Assembly (NCBI GenBank): GCA_036172455.1 | Contig: JAXKVY010000005.1 | Location: forward strand, 1 to 64,000 | From: Candidatus Izemoplasma sp. | Lineage (GTDB): Bacteria > Bacillota_I > Bacilli_A > Izemoplasmatales > Izemoplasmataceae | Length of the DNA stretch: 64,000 bases | Direction of reading: 5' to 3' | Shown here: one piece after another, positions 3,024 through 9,829 of the stretch | How the letters are laid out: every line of letters begins with the position of its first letter | Position numbering within the stretch: the first letter of the stretch is position 1 | Notes under the pieces: model-generated | What the model was told of the DNA's origin: nothing | Databases searched by the model: none | The model's input: the letters and a program-made list of their open reading frames with translations, nothing else | Translations under genes and position numbers: made by a program

Positions 3024-3627
3024 TATTTCAATGTTGATTCACGAAGACATGCAAGTCTATAAAAATAAACCAGAGAAGGCCCCTAAAATAACGGTTGATG
3101 GCACACATCAAACAAGTAGTGCTCATGAGTCTCGAATTGAGATGAATCTTCATACAGGAACACATATGGATTTCCCTTTACATATGATTCCACAGGGAAA
3201 AACATCCGAAACGGAACAATTAAAGCCATTAATTGGCCAGGCAAAGGTTTTTGATATGACACAATGTAAAGACCATATTGGTCTAGATGATGTCAAAAAG
3301 CTCAACATTAATAAAGATGATTTTATTCTCTTTAAAACACAAAACTCAATGACAGATGCGTTCTTAATGGAGTTTATCTATGTCAATGAAGCAGCAAGTG
3401 AATATTTAAAGAACCAACAGATTCGTGGTGTCGGAATAGATGGTCTTGGAATTGAACGTGCACAAAAAGACCACCCAACTCATAAAATCCTACTTGGTGC
3501 TGATATCATTATTATTGAAGGGCTTAGGTTAAAAGACGTTCCTGAAGGTGATTATCAATTGTACGCATTACCACTTAAAATTAAAGATGTCGAAGCATTG
3601 CCATTACGGGCAATTCTCATCGATTAA
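3013..3627 (+). CDS. cyclase family protein (kynurenine formamidase-like)
   Basis: HTGTHMDFPLH metal-binding motif of putative cyclases. The track ORF started at 2890 inside zwf; the start is trimmed to the in-frame ATG at 3013. Confidence 0.7.
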   Translation: MIYDISMLIHEDMQVYKNKPEKAPKITVDGTHQTSSAHESRIEMNLHTGTHMDFPLHMIPQGKTSETEQLKPLIGQAKVFDMTQCKDHIGLDDVKKLNINKDDFILFKTQNSMTDAFLMEFIYVNEAASEYLKNQQIRGVGIDGLGIERAQKDHPTHKILLGADIIIIEGLRLKDVPEGDYQLYALPLKIKDVEALPLRAILID

Positions 3628-3630
3628 GAA

Positions 3631-3658
3631 AAGCGTTGCTCGTACGAGCAACGCTTTA
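3631..3658. terminator. bidirectional rho-independent terminator between convergent genes
   Basis: 12-bp perfect stem AAGCGTTGCTCG/CGAGCAACGCTT with T-rich flanks on both strands. Confidence 0.7.
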
Positions 3659-3660
3659 TT

Positions 3661-3960
3661 TTAAATCATGATACCAAGTAATTCATTAATCTTTTTCATT
3701 TTGCGTTTTATTTTGCGACTATTCCAAAAGGAATGTTTTAAGTGTTTCTTAATTTGACGGAGTAGTTTATAAACTTTTTTCAACTTGCGTTTGTTAATTT
3801 GTTTATTATTGTTGATGGAGTATTCAACGTTTTCTTTTAAATCATTCAAAGAGTCTTTAAATTTGTCTTTATTGGTACTACTTGCGACACGATCAAGTGC
3901 ACTTGCTAAATCATGTAAGTTTTCAATTGTTTTACGTCTTTTATTATCTAAATCAGCCAT
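3661..3960 (-). CDS. small basic coiled-coil protein (operon member 4 of the TIR/SPFH locus)
   Basis: About 99 aa starting at MADLDNK, with an AGGTGA RBS 5 nt upstream. The C-terminus is extremely K/R-rich (KKHLKHSFWNSRKIKRKMKK). It overlaps the stop of the upstream SPFH gene by about 10 nt. Confidence 0.5.
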   Translation of the reverse strand: MADLDNKRRKTIENLHDLASALDRVASSTNKDKFKDSLNDLKENVEYSINNNKQINKRKLKKVYKLLRQIKKHLKHSFWNSRKIKRKMKKINELLGIMI

Positions 3961-3968
3961 ATTGTCAC

Positions 3969-4844
3969 CTATAAATCCTTTCCGCATTTACTGCAGAAGT
4001 TGGCTTCTTTAGGGTTAGGATGACCACATTTGTTACAGAATACTTTATCCGTTTGAGGTCCTTGGTTAGGAATTTTAGCATCCTTTTTTATTTCTTTTCT
4101 GACCCCTTTACGAAGTTTTTTATTGTCATTAAATTCTGTATTATTTAAAATACTTTCTTTTTTTACATCCTTGAGTTTTTCAAGAAACGCTTCATCATAA
4201 TAAAACCGTTCAATAAAGAATTTGTTTAAGGTTACTCCATACTCAGTAAAAACAGGGTTTAGTAGTTCTTTTAATTGATTTGCAATCTCTTTTTCTTTAG
4301 TTGTAATAATTTGGATATCATCAAGGCCATATTTATTTTTGAGAAAGACCTTTGCGATGGTATTTCGAATTTCTTGATTAAGTTCACTTTTAAAGAAATC
4401 TTTTACCATCTCTTGTGTTAACTCTTGATGAGACCCTTGCACTTTTGAAAAGAGCTTCATTGAATTATCAATGGAGAACTTGTATGATCCATTTGCGCCG
4501 ACATCTGTGTGCATATCATATTTTTTGTCATAGACATCAATTTTGTTTGGCGTACCCCATTTGTTCTCAAGTTGCGCGGTCCGATTAATGTAGTAAATGT
4601 TACAATCAGTGATTGTCTTTTCTTTCTTGAGAAGTTTACTGAGGAAACCTGTGCCTTTAGTATTGACGACATAATACTCTTCACGATCATCAAATGCGCC
4701 TAAAAAAGCCCCTTTTCTTAAGAAAATTATGTCACAATCTTTACGAGCATAAATTTTAGATTTCTTTGTTAATGTTGTGACATCACTTTTCCAAATGACT
4801 GCCTCAGGATGTCCTTTAAATATGACTTCTGTACGTTTTGCCAT
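3969..4844 (-). CDS. SPFH/band-7 domain protein with C-terminal double zinc ribbon (YdjI-like)
   Basis: N-terminal and central similarity to the B. subtilis YdjI type (SPFH Band_7_1). The C-terminus FCNKCGHPNPKEANFCSKCG parallels YdjI NFCPNCG..ANFCPNCG. Confidence 0.6.
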   Translation of the reverse strand: MAKRTEVIFKGHPEAVIWKSDVTTLTKKSKIYARKDCDIIFLRKGAFLGAFDDREEYYVVNTKGTGFLSKLLKKEKTITDCNIYYINRTAQLENKWGTPNKIDVYDKKYDMHTDVGANGSYKFSIDNSMKLFSKVQGSHQELTQEMVKDFFKSELNQEIRNTIAKVFLKNKYGLDDIQIITTKEKEIANQLKELLNPVFTEYGVTLNKFFIERFYYDEAFLEKLKDVKKESILNNTEFNDNKKLRKGVRKEIKKDAKIPNQGPQTDKVFCNKCGHPNPKEANFCSKCGKDL

Positions 4845-4846
4845 AA

Positions 4847-5668
4847 CTATTCCTTTTCCTCTCTAGCTTTTAAGCTTTTAATTTTATTTTTAGCATGTGT
4901 ATTAATGTGTTTACTTAATGCAGGATGACTGTCTTTAAACTGTTTAACAGGTAATCTTGAAATACTCTTTCTTTTGTTTATTAACCCATATAGCCCACCA
5001 ATTGAAGCAATTATGATCAGATATTCTTGTGTATTAATGACTTGGTTAATCAAGGGGCTTGATATTTCTAATATGCTATTTAGTGCGTATATACCAAATG
5101 TAATAGCAAGAAATAAAATGGCGTAAGATAAAAAGTGCTTAAAGAGTAATGTAAGGTATGAAAAGATAATATTTGATACCCTGTATTGCGGATATTTAGT
5201 TTTAAGCATATAAGGATGTTTTACTCCCTTAAACGCTGATTTTGGAATGGTTAAATTCTCGAAATTATCAGGGTATTCTTTTTCCAATAATTCTTTTGTC
5301 CCTTCATTGAGATGTCCTTGATCGAGTGTTTCAAAGATGTCAAGTGCTTCTTGAGTAGTGAAATCATCTGTCAAAAGGTATTTTTTGTGCGTTTCATAAT
5401 ATATCCAAAAGATTATGAATTCTAATGTCTTTTTATAATAAAATTTAACCGGATAAGAAACATCATGTACACGTTTTGATAAGTATAGACCTTCAGTTAA
5501 AGCATCTTGTAATGCTTTAGAAAATTGGTTCACATCACCATTAGAAGCGATTTTGCTCACAACATCTTGAAAAGAGATTTCTGTTGCATCGTCGTTTATG
5601 ATTTCACCACAATTGTCACATATGATAGTGATACCATTTAAGGTTTTTTCACAACTGGGACACTTCAT
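4847..5668 (-). CDS. zinc-ribbon membrane protein (YdjH-position analog)
   Basis: N-terminal CPSC-x10-CDNC zinc ribbon and two C-terminal hydrophobic helices. Its ATG overlaps the TGA of the upstream gene (ATGA). Confidence 0.5.
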   Translation of the reverse strand: MKCPSCEKTLNGITIICDNCGEIINDDATEISFQDVVSKIASNGDVNQFSKALQDALTEGLYLSKRVHDVSYPVKFYYKKTLEFIIFWIYYETHKKYLLTDDFTTQEALDIFETLDQGHLNEGTKELLEKEYPDNFENLTIPKSAFKGVKHPYMLKTKYPQYRVSNIIFSYLTLLFKHFLSYAILFLAITFGIYALNSILEISSPLINQVINTQEYLIIIASIGGLYGLINKRKSISRLPVKQFKDSHPALSKHINTHAKNKIKSLKAREEKE

Positions 5669-7623
5669 GATGTCTCCCCCCTTAATGATAAATTAATCCG
5701 GTGTTTCTTTTTACGCTTTTTATGACGACAATGCATGAGCAAATCGATGACCAAATCATGTGTTTCATCAAGTTCAAATAACTTTTCAACAAGTTGAGAT
5801 TCAAGTAACTTATAGCGCTTTTTCTTACGAAGTTTAGCAATCGCTTTGTATAAATCAACTGTATTATTCACCTTCATACTAGCTAGTAGTAAGTAAAGAT
5901 ATTTTTTATTGCTAGTGTTATCGTATTTAAAGAGTTCTAAGGTGAGGCTGAGCGCTTCTTTATAGTCTTTATGTTCGAAGGCAATTAAGATTTCTTCATG
6001 TAAATGAGTGACTTTAGTTCGGTTTTCTTCAAGTGTTTCTGTGGTTTCTTTTTGATGTGCTTTAAACTTTACTAAGTAGTTTGTAATATATTTTGGAATA
6101 TGACTTCGATTAAAATCAGGGTGTTCCTTAATGCTTTCCATATCATCAAAGAGTGGTGTCAATTGATCGAAGTTGGGTGTGTCTTTATTCAGAGATTCAT
6201 TTAGTTGATCATCGGTATCAAACGCATATTTAATCAATAATTTGTTCCATGTATTTAAGATATGACGGTGACATTTTACATCAATATAGCTCTCTTTATG
6301 TTTAGGATTTAGCCGTGGCATATTGATATAATGCAGTAATTGTTCATATAACGCATCTTCAAAGGGTTTTATTGTTTTAGGATAATGTCCATCAACAAAT
6401 GGCGTATATTTTTTATACTGTTGATAAGCAGATTGTTGGTAACACGCCATGAGTTTATCTAGGTTTTCATCCTTTTGTGTAAAGGTATGAAAGACCTCTT
6501 CACTAGAAAATTCATTTTCTGCCAAAAAGAGTTGAAACCAAGCTTCTTGAGCGTTAGGTTTTAGGCTGAGGGCTTCTTTTGTCGTATCTATTGCGTCTTG
6601 ATAGTTTTGGTTTATAAGTTCAATATGACTTCTATTTAACAATTTGTCATATTCGTCTAATTGTGTTTTTTGACGTTTTTCTTGGGAGGTCGTGGTTTTT
6701 AGATTTGCTTCTTGTAAGCCATGATAAATGCGTTGTTTTAATTCTTGTAAAGCGCCATCAATATCAGTTGTAGCATCTATCCATTTAAATCCATCAAAGA
6801 AGTACTTAAAAGTTGATGTATGCTTAGTATCATCTATTTTAAACTCTAATCTGTTTTTCTTTAATTTCATAGCGATATCAAGTTCTTTACGAACATCTTG
6901 GCTAAGCATGGCACTTTCTGATGTTATCACTAAAAAGATATTTGCTTTCGTAATGGCATCTTCAATATTAGACCAATAATTGTCATTATCATTTGGTCGT
7001 AAATTCCTAGATGATATCCAACAGGTATAACCATCTGATTCTATAACATCCACAACGGTGTTCGCAATATCTTGTTCGGTCGAACGATAGGAGATAAAGA
7101 CATCTCTAGGAATGGAAGCATAATTTTCTTCTTCAATAATCTTTTGGTTGTATACCCGTTCGTATTCTTCGAGCTTACTGGGCATATTCGATTCTATAAA
7201 CGACATCACTAGTTGTTTATCTCGTAAATCACTATACGTAATCATATGATCAACGATTTTGGTGATATCAGTTTCTATCGTAAATGCATTTTGATTATAA
7301 AATTTCAATAAATAACGTCTAGCTCCAAATTTATAGTTGGCATAGGCATAGTAATAGGTAGCCAAAGTATCTTTAGGAATCAGACGTAAAATTTCTTTTG
7401 TGAAATGTAAGATATTTTTATGGTCATCAACTTCAACAGCACGGTTTAAATTATCCCTAAGTTTCGAAATTTGTTTGTGTTCTTTGGTCCCTTTTAGAGC
7501 GAATTCGAGACCATTGCTAACTAAAAATGTTGAGCCACAAGCCTCACACTTTTGGGTGGTTTGTTCATGATCAATCTCAATTGAACTACCACATGATGTA
7601 CATACGATCTTTGTTAACTCCAT
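5665..7623 (-). CDS. zinc-ribbon / TIR-domain / TPR-like helical protein
   Basis: The N-terminus CTSCG-x14-CEACG is a zinc ribbon. Residues about 174-300 (nt about 6724-7104) read DVFISYRS...CWISSRNLRPNDN...IFLVITSESAMLSQDVRKELDIA, a TIR fold with a conserved Glu. The C-terminal 350 aa are helical repeats. Start is set at MELTK, with a GGAGG RBS. Confidence 0.65.
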   Translation of the reverse strand: MELTKIVCTSCGSSIEIDHEQTTQKCEACGSTFLVSNGLEFALKGTKEHKQISKLRDNLNRAVEVDDHKNILHFTKEILRLIPKDTLATYYYAYANYKFGARRYLLKFYNQNAFTIETDITKIVDHMITYSDLRDKQLVMSFIESNMPSKLEEYERVYNQKIIEEENYASIPRDVFISYRSTEQDIANTVVDVIESDGYTCWISSRNLRPNDNDNYWSNIEDAITKANIFLVITSESAMLSQDVRKELDIAMKLKKNRLEFKIDDTKHTSTFKYFFDGFKWIDATTDIDGALQELKQRIYHGLQEANLKTTTSQEKRQKTQLDEYDKLLNRSHIELINQNYQDAIDTTKEALSLKPNAQEAWFQLFLAENEFSSEEVFHTFTQKDENLDKLMACYQQSAYQQYKKYTPFVDGHYPKTIKPFEDALYEQLLHYINMPRLNPKHKESYIDVKCHRHILNTWNKLLIKYAFDTDDQLNESLNKDTPNFDQLTPLFDDMESIKEHPDFNRSHIPKYITNYLVKFKAHQKETTETLEENRTKVTHLHEEILIAFEHKDYKEALSLTLELFKYDNTSNKKYLYLLLASMKVNNTVDLYKAIAKLRKKKRYKLLESQLVEKLFELDETHDLVIDLLMHCRHKKRKKKHRINLSLRGETS

Positions 7624-7711
7624 AGATAAATCCTCCCTAATATAAAGAAAAGAGCGACGAATCACTCTTTTAGATTGTATAAGTATTATGTCATAGCGTT
7701 CCCTTGTTAAA

Positions 7712-7741
7712 ATTATATCACAAGCAACCTAATCATTTCAA
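7712..7741 (-). promoter_or_regulatory. sigma-A type promoter of the TIR operon
   Basis: Minus strand TTGAAA - 17/18 nt - gTGaTATAAT (extended -10), about 90 nt upstream of the MELTK start codon. Confidence 0.5.
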
Positions 7742-7752
7742 AACTATTTTTC

Positions 7753-9048
7753 TCAAGTTTCCAAAATATAGCTCACAAGATGGGTCTTTTGATGAAAAAT
7801 CATGACAAAACCTTTGTAAATTAATAACGTGTCTAAGGTCGGATCAAACTTAATTGATTCAAACAGAATAGAGTCACCTTTTTTGGTGAGTTCACTAATC
7901 ATCTTATCTAGCATATAGTCTTGGTCTGTGTTGTCATTAGGTAAATCAAATGATAAGATGTTTACCTGTGTTTTATCTTGCATTGGAATATCTCTAATCT
8001 CATATCCATAAAGACCAACTTCAACATCATCTTTTAATAATGTGACTTGATGTATGTCAGATATTAGTTCCTCTGTGAGACGATATTTTTGCGTATAAGA
8101 AGTTGGTCTAAACTTTAAGGTATCGGTGACTTTTACATTGAGTAATGTTTTAAGAATATTGATACTTAAAGAGATATATGTAACAGCAACCATAATAGCT
8201 AAAATTTCCTTTTGAGGCCTTGGGTCGGTGAATAGCTCCATTGTCCCAATCATTATGCCAAGACCAATTAATGTTAAAGTTCGTATATAAAATAATGTCA
8301 TTTTATGTGTGTAGGTTTTATTTACAATTGAAATAATAAAATCAACAATTAATAAGAATGCGAGTGCAATCAATAGTGTCATTAAGAACCGTTCTGTATT
8401 GGTGCTGAGATTTTGAATATTTTGAAATAATACTACAACGGTAATACCCATAAGTAGATGCAATAATTTTAAGATATCTAATAATTGATATTGAATCAGT
8501 TGTTTAATATAATAAACAAAGATACTAAAGATCATGACTAAGTAAAGAATAAGGGCAACTGTTTGTCCGCCTTCACCAACCGAACTGCAATTATAATCGG
8601 TCCAACCACAACCAGTAATAGCTAAATGGATGTAGTCAATTACGATAAATAGCGGTAACAAAATCCACAGCTCTAAAGGTTTAATACTTCGAGAAATTAA
8701 TAGACTGTGTACACCTAATACGAGAATAAGCAGGAGATAAACAGTGATTAGGTTAGATAACTCAAGAGCATTTTGGAAGGTATAAAAGTACATCAAAATA
8801 TTACCGATAAGCCCAAAGAGTAAATACTTTTGTTCAATTTTTGATGGTACGTGAATCTTATCAAGATAGATGGCTAACGCAATCCCTAAAGCTAAAGCAA
8901 GTAAAAGTATGAGATTAAGAATGAGTGTAATGATATGATCAGAACGCGTTATAGAACTACTGTAAATGGAGACAATTCCCCAAATAAAAGGGGGATATAA
9001 GAAAAATATATAGGTTAATACATAGTATAATTTACTGACTTTTTTCAT
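7753..9048 (-). CDS. polytopic membrane protein with C-terminal soluble domain, unknown function
   Basis: About 10 predicted TM helices and a roughly 130-aa hydrophilic C-terminus. The ATG at 9048 has an AAGGAG RBS. Confidence 0.45.
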   Translation of the reverse strand: MKKVSKLYYVLTYIFFLYPPFIWGIVSIYSSSITRSDHIITLILNLILLLALALGIALAIYLDKIHVPSKIEQKYLLFGLIGNILMYFYTFQNALELSNLITVYLLLILVLGVHSLLISRSIKPLELWILLPLFIVIDYIHLAITGCGWTDYNCSSVGEGGQTVALILYLVMIFSIFVYYIKQLIQYQLLDILKLLHLLMGITVVVLFQNIQNLSTNTERFLMTLLIALAFLLIVDFIISIVNKTYTHKMTLFYIRTLTLIGLGIMIGTMELFTDPRPQKEILAIMVAVTYISLSINILKTLLNVKVTDTLKFRPTSYTQKYRLTEELISDIHQVTLLKDDVEVGLYGYEIRDIPMQDKTQVNILSFDLPNDNTDQDYMLDKMISELTKKGDSILFESIKFDPTLDTLLIYKGFVMIFHQKTHLVSYILET

Positions 9049-9123
9049 ATGAACCACTCCTTAATCCTATTATACCCTCTATGCTTCTATAATACTATAG
9101 ATACTGTTAGATTATCGATCAAA

Positions 9124-9148
9124 TAAAAAAAGCGCAAAGCGCTTTTTA
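9124..9148 (-). terminator. rho-independent terminator
   Basis: GCGCtttGCGC hairpin flanked by A7/T5. Confidence 0.6.
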
Positions 9149-9829
9149 GAGTTCAGTATATTCTCCGGGATTAAGTATTATGACGTCTGATTGGGAAACT
9201 TTATCTTTGAAATCATTAGGGTCTGCTTGGATTTGATCAAAAGTATTATAATGAATTGGAACCACTTTATCTGGCTTGATAAAATCTACTGCAATAACGG
9301 CATCATCAACATCCATTGTATAGTTCCCCCCAATGGGTAAAAAAGCAAGATCAATTAAACTGTTTTCTAATAATTTCATATCATATGTAAGTCCAGTATC
9401 TCCAGCATGATAAATTGTCTTATCGGCAACTTTGAGTAAAAAGCCACAAGGGGTACCCCCGTCATAAATCATATCGTTTTCGACATATCCTGATCCATGA
9501 AGCGCAGGTGTCATTTTAACGGTTCCAAAATCAACCGTAGCACGACCTCCAATATGCATCGCATGGATGTTTAAATCACGATCAATACTCTTTAATATTG
9601 TCGCAATTTCAGCGTTTGATATAATTAAAGCATTATTTTTCTTTGCGATTTCAATCGCATCACCCACATGATCGCCATGAGCATGTGTGATTAATACGTG
9701 TGTGATACCATCGATATCACGATCATTTTTTTTATAGACTGGGTTGTGTGTTAAAAAGGGATCAATGATTATTTTATAGTCTAATGCTTCAATTAATACA
9801 GCCGCATGTCCTAAAAATGTACATTTCAT
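9146..9829 (-). CDS. metal-dependent hydrolase, MBL fold (UPF0173 family)
   Basis: HAHGDH metallo-beta-lactamase motif; 227 aa. Confidence 0.8.
   Translation of the reverse strand: MKCTFLGHAAVLIEALDYKIIIDPFLTHNPVYKKNDRDIDGITHVLITHAHGDHVGDAIEIAKKNNALIISNAEIATILKSIDRDLNIHAMHIGGRATVDFGTVKMTPALHGSGYVENDMIYDGGTPCGFLLKVADKTIYHAGDTGLTYDMKLLENSLIDLAFLPIGGNYTMDVDDAVIAVDFIKPDKVVPIHYNTFDQIQADPNDFKDKVSQSDVIILNPGEYTEL

Follow-up and report, generated by a model that had tools for sequence, protein, structure and literature searches.

TIR domains are common to the immunity of animals, plants and bacteria. What, then, is the role of a TIR protein of Candidatus Izemoplasma sp. whose TIR domain lies between a zinc ribbon and a long series of helical repeats? 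The protein is the product of gene 1 in a window of 64,000 nucleotides (the whole stretch of DNA analyzed), and is 100% identical to an NCBI entry annotated as "toll/interleukin-1 receptor domain-containing protein" from the same organism. The original prediction noted the unusual order of domains and viewed the protein as a stand-alone sensor-effector that oligomerizes on a trigger, which is plausible. The order of domains is borne out by the predicted model, Pfam and Foldseek, and the protein can be divided as follows:

5665..7623, minus strand: gene 1, 652 aa, zinc ribbon / helical / TIR / TPR-like protein
7522..7623, minus strand: zinc ribbon, aa 1-34, with C8, C11, C26 and C29; four short strands in the predicted model
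7120..7521, minus strand: N-terminal all-helical domain, aa 35-168; seven helices with pLDDT >87 in the model
6763..7119, minus strand: TIR domain, aa 169-287, with the BB-loop-like segment RNLRPNDNDNYW and Glu247 at the catalytic position (nt 6883-6885)
6613..6762, minus strand: single long helix, aa 288-337 (model helix H288-337)
5725..6612, minus strand: TPR-like helical repeat region, aa 338-633, with a sub-threshold Pfam TPR_2 match at 328-357
5668..5724, minus strand: polybasic C-terminal tail HKKRKKKHRINLSLRGETS, whose YKKRKK..RI.h.hRG motif is kept in orthologs

Assignment of the central domain to the TIR superfamily is supported by a Pfam TIR_2 match (PF13676) on residues 175-289, which scores 56.2 bits where the cut-off is 28 (E=6.3e-15), and by a flavodoxin-like alpha/beta TIR fold in the predicted model. 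TIR is also the best-conserved portion of the protein when orthologs are compared, and conservation of its BB-loop is strict. The glutamate proposed to sit at the NADase catalytic position does so: E247 is invariant across 94 sequences and aligns with Glu77 of the SPARTA TIR-APAZ protein, where an E77A change abolishes NADase activity (PMC9097488). Activity of TIR NADases depends on oligomerization (10.1101/2023.09.23.559129). By both structure and sequence, the closest domains are the scaffolding TIRs of MyD88 and MAL together with SARM1. Because a profile of the whole protein matched no TIR among PDB sequences, the sequence comparison was made with a TIR-only profile. The domain can be plausibly considered a candidate NAD+-cleaving enzyme, judged from its intact catalytic-position Glu.

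At the N-terminus, the predicted zinc ribbon is confirmed by four cysteines with conservation above 90%, and its profile resembles archaeal ribosomal and RNA-polymerase zinc ribbons (E about 1e-3). Between the ribbon and the TIR lies a helical domain of about 135 residues that had been overlooked, with 66% pairwise identity between orthologs. This N-terminal domain is obligately coupled to a TIR of the gene 1 type: a search with ribbon and helical domain gave 204 matches in 1.84 billion representatives, N-terminal in all of them, and a gene-1-type TIR comes next in 97 of the 109 new matches. The helical C-terminus is less conserved than the remainder of the protein, with 39% identity between orthologs in the long helix (the lowest value) and 46% in the TPR-like region. 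The latter matches the TPR arrays of Tom71, APC/C and OGT in Foldseek, in agreement with the suggestion of TPR-like repeats past the TIR. Beyond the TIR the model contains helices alone and no central STAND NTPase; no P-loop or NTPase family was matched in Pfam, NCBIfam or PADLOC, no transmembrane (TM) segment is predicted, and no LRR was found with Pfam. A missing TIR fold, or a Glu and Cys positions lacking conservation, had been named as findings that would overturn the original prediction; both were examined and neither holds. Its structural reading stands; the functional reading was incomplete as it missed the helical domain, the operon and the membrane-anchored relatives.

Gene 1 opens a conserved operon of four genes. 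This conclusion follows from genes that overlap or abut (the start of gene 2 overlaps the stop of gene 1), a single strong promoter-like site and a single terminator-like site:

7712..7741, minus strand: promoter-like site, TTGAAA-18-TATAAT with TG ahead of the -10, identified by consensus match only
7648..7671, minus strand: terminator-like hairpin within the 5' leader, 10-bp stem followed by a U-rich tract
4847..5668, minus strand: gene 2, 273 aa, N-terminal zinc ribbon, helical region and 2 predicted TM segments (ZnTM protein)
3969..4844, minus strand: gene 3, 291 aa, SPFH domain (Band_7_1) and C-terminal zinc ribbon, no TM segment
3661..3960, minus strand: gene 4, about 99 aa, basic helical protein with probable start ATG at 3960
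3630..3657, no strand given: terminator-like 12-bp hairpin at the operon end, 4 nt past the gene 4 stop; it is palindromic and therefore foldable on either strand

The promoter-like site matches 11 of 12 positions and is the top sigma-70-type match within 3400-9200. A riboswitch or attenuator of a recognizable kind in the 5' leader was considered and rejected (no Rfam match; folding z-score -0.47). The upstream gene, which encodes a 434-aa protein with 9 TM segments, was ruled out as part of the system since it is kept only in the two closest relatives. The operon is surrounded by pentose-phosphate, NAD(P)HX-repair and hydrolase genes, and no mobile-element signature was detected in the neighborhood of gene 1.

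The partner genes were also examined. Gene 2, with zinc-ribbon cysteines C3, C6, C17 and C20, lies 3' of the TIR gene in seven Izemoplasma-type loci. It evolves fast: the homolog search gave 3 clusters. Its AF2 model, with a pLDDT of 44.8, is too poor to be used. BLASTP and hhalign showed no resemblance of the gene 2 protein to the TM region fused in the relative P0028 or to the N-domain of the TIR protein. Gene 3 matches Band_7_1 (1.6e-16), Band_7 (6.6e-8) and, at residues 269-291, Zn_Ribbon_1 (4.4e-8), and belongs to a small SPFH subfamily of 33 clusters. In 19 of 44 loci, a relative of gene 3 and a TIR-family gene are at most 10 kb apart, and an SPFH or AAA gene is present at 27 of the 44, many contigs being broken off in both counts; proximity of an SPFH gene by chance would be about 1-2% by our own estimate, which assumes one or two Band_7_1 genes per genome of a few Mb. 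When the search was started from the SPFH side, the four contexts examined, which represent two independent arrangements, all showed the order SPFH, small gene, TIR_2 protein. Gene 4 matches no Pfam family and carries the conserved motif H-S/E-h-W-N..[RK]IK[RK]; jackhmmer placed its family immediately 3' of the SPFH gene in 14 loci, clostridial ones included.

The order TIR-ZnTM-SPFH-small is kept in relatives at 47-69% identity, with different genomic surroundings in two of them (L003 and L009). The SPFH gene of Izimaplasma HR1, by contrast, lies apart. Another arrangement is found in P0029, a TIR protein fused to TM segments that is followed directly by the SPFH and small genes, with no ZnTM gene. 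In P0027-P0030, TM segments begin at the place where gene 1 has its polybasic tail; in these proteins and in P0052 they come after the TPR-like region, so that a juxtamembrane spacer or docking region is as likely a function for the latter as that of a sensor. The majority of gene 1 relatives are membrane-anchored, with one or more TM segments after the TIR in 111 of 194 family members. LRR_5, Ig-like or RCC1 domains lie past the TM in such relatives, P0078, P0045 and P0041 being examples of a TIR-TM-LRR_5 layout with the TIR at the N-terminus; other relatives have cytosolic LRR_5 or Sel1 repeats directly past the TIR and no TM. In Clostridia, the family shows variable C-termini and tandem paralogs, and its loci contain genes for a Snf7-like protein, a classical AAA protein (weak Vps4_C) and a protease with a zinc ribbon and a trypsin-like domain. 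The Snf7-like designation is a weak lead from sequence: Pfam Snf7 was matched (2.2e-6) in only one of five members of this family, whose genes lie 5' of the AAA gene and encode about 200 aa; Pfam gave nothing for the L005 copy, and the family profile had no match in PDB.

The operon does not lie in any obvious defense island. A PADLOC scan of 147 neighbor proteins from 41 loci gave mostly generic matches (IetA/TRIP13 for AAA, RT-protease for trypsin), with SoFic, AbiEi, QatD and PtuA matched once each. A phage origin is unsupported: IMG/VR contained no relatives, and PHROG matches were trivial only. Among the operon genes there is none for a downstream receptor of a signal made by the TIR.

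That the same operon encodes a membrane anchor, a flotillin-like SPFH protein as scaffold and a small helical partner suggests an undescribed membrane TIR system. Our tentative model, which we consider possible if somewhat short of probable, is that the four proteins assemble into a complex with TIR enzyme activity at the cytoplasmic side of the membrane of the wall-less Izemoplasma cell, and that disturbance of the membrane leads to NAD+ cleavage. The polybasic tail and the ZnTM protein would hold the soluble TIR protein at the membrane, the latter as a separate substitute for the TM segments with which the TIR protein of relatives is fused. By analogy with YdjI and PspA in Bacillus subtilis, the soluble YdjI-like SPFH protein might oligomerize into a scaffold under the membrane and gather its zinc-ribbon partners. 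A membrane disturbance (in relatives, possibly engagement of the extracellular LRR, Ig or RCC1 part) would then permit that TIR domains meet through the strictly conserved BB-loop, and the clustered domains may complete an active site around Glu247. Cleavage of NAD+ by the active TIR would cause either depletion or a nucleotide signal, and the cell might be arrested as a defense or as a damage response. Several observations speak against this model: the separate location of the SPFH gene in Izimaplasma HR1, the lack of resemblance between ZnTM and the fused TM regions, a TIR closest to scaffolding domains such as those of MyD88 and MAL as well as to SARM1, the lack of an obvious defense island, the few specific defense matches among neighbor proteins, the absence of relatives from viral contigs, and the lack of an encoded signal receptor.

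The same four genes may admit a different explanation, somewhat unlikely in our opinion: that they make up a housekeeping module for envelope stress or membrane homeostasis, a TIR-bearing counterpart of PspA-YdjGHI. The TIR protein would be a non-lethal regulator of an SPFH/ESCRT-III-like maintenance network, acting by turning over NAD+ locally or by making a nucleotide signal, and membrane upkeep could be especially important for a wall-less Izemoplasma. The YdjI-like architecture of the SPFH partner and metabolic surroundings that lack mobile elements are consistent with this explanation, as are the clostridial TIR loci with Snf7-like, AAA and zinc-ribbon protease genes, a type of gene set that has been tied to PspA/ESCRT-III systems (PMC11237479). 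Orthologs are spread across Izemoplasma-type genomes at 45-83% identity, and those at 45-50% look vertically inherited, so that housekeeping fits as well as defense. The operon, however, has no PspA, TPM or NTF2-like component, a search of the 64-kb window gave no homologs of the Snf7-like or AAA proteins of Clostridia, and the operon encodes no signal receptor. Furthermore, the variable C-termini and tandem paralogs of Clostridia resemble diversifying receptors, and characterized bacterial TIR enzymes with the catalytic Glu act in immunity (SPARTA, PMC9097488).

If Glu247 had a structural role, the TIR might be a non-catalytic adaptor that forms MyD88/MAL-like filaments and brings proteins of the surface or membrane together in SPFH microdomains; we view this as quite improbable. 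More improbable still is a stand-alone cytosolic TIR-TPR sensor-effector in which the TPR-like region binds the trigger and the neighbor genes are unrelated. The lack of a TM segment in the gene 1 protein argues for it, and TM-less relatives with LRR_5 or Sel1 after the TIR have the typical repeat-sensor/effector layout of immune proteins. Unrelated neighbors are nevertheless difficult to reconcile with the stop-start overlap of genes 1 and 2, a single promoter/terminator pair, a gene order kept at 47% identity and an SPFH-small-TIR linkage found independently from the SPFH side; the TM segments after the TPR-like region in P0027-P0030 and P0052 also argue against a cytosolic sensor.

A broader reading, unlikely as it may be, is that the operon represents a soluble, "split" member of a family of Toll-like receptors not yet described in bacteria, which would detect and answer an attack on the surface or membrane (for instance, phage adsorption or pore formation) with NAD+ cleavage. 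Such a family would have a metazoan-type, catalytically competent TIR in the cytoplasm, behind a dedicated zinc-ribbon/helical domain; most members would continue from the TIR through the membrane into variable surface repeats (LRR, Ig-like, RCC1); and their partners would be an SPFH-zinc ribbon scaffold and a small helical adaptor, plus ESCRT-III/Vps4-like proteins in Clostridia. An obligately membrane-proximal TIR family linked genetically to SPFH proteins and to ESCRT-III/Vps4-like genes would join NAD+-based signaling to membrane and surface surveillance, and its surface repeats would offer a bacterial layout directly comparable to Toll-like receptors. SPFH proteins of the YdjI type are poorly understood, and the system would also provide them with a client amenable to study. 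A literature search for TIR together with SPFH/Band-7 found nothing relevant.

TIR enzymes of Thoeris and CBASS with a catalytic Glu act in immunity, and the triggers of SPARTA, Thoeris and CBASS TIR-SAVED are nucleic acids or small-molecule signals. Gene 1 differs from these systems and from AbTir in its zinc-ribbon/helical N-terminus and TPR-like C-terminus, and the operon in that it combines the TIR with an SPFH scaffold, a membrane protein bearing a zinc ribbon, and the small helical product of gene 4. The ThsB_TIR score of gene 1 (19.3 bits) is below the cut-off of 21.2, PADLOC matches to ThsB are weak, and no ThsA-like protein (SIR2 or TM with SLOG/Macro) is found among operon or flanking genes. 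The PADLOC SAVED_TIR match is confined to the TIR (profile positions 9-127 of 404), with no SAVED or CD-NTase family among the operon neighbors. PDB matches end with the TIR, which is followed by the TPR-like region instead of APAZ, and no Argonaute gene is nearby. Unlike STAND/NLR-type proteins (Avs, bNACHT), gene 1 has no STAND NTPase between effector and repeats.

A further comparison is with PspA-YdjGHI, the envelope-stress module of Bacillus subtilis. YdjI is a soluble protein made of Band-7 and a C-terminal zinc ribbon, which requires the membrane proteins YdjG and YdjH and recruits PspA (PMC8581546, PMC11237479). Gene 3 has this published architecture (Band_7_1, C-terminal zinc ribbon, no TM) and, like YdjI, is encoded together with zinc-ribbon and membrane proteins as potential anchors (PMC8581546, PMC11237479). 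In contrast, none of the four operon proteins matches PspA/IM30, TPM (YdjH) or NTF2-like (YdjG), and the presumed client is a TIR protein; PMC11237479 mentions no such client, "Tir" referring there to CesT/Tir chaperones only. With regard to TLR, MyD88 and SARM1, gene 1 itself lacks the TM and LRR of the Toll-like layout. The relatives have that layout reversed, with an N-terminal TIR and C-terminal LRRs of the BspA type (LRR_5). Compared with TLR and MyD88, the family has a zinc-ribbon/helical domain before the TIR, and the catalytic-position Glu is present, unlike in theirs. The likeness in layout to animal TLRs may be convergent.

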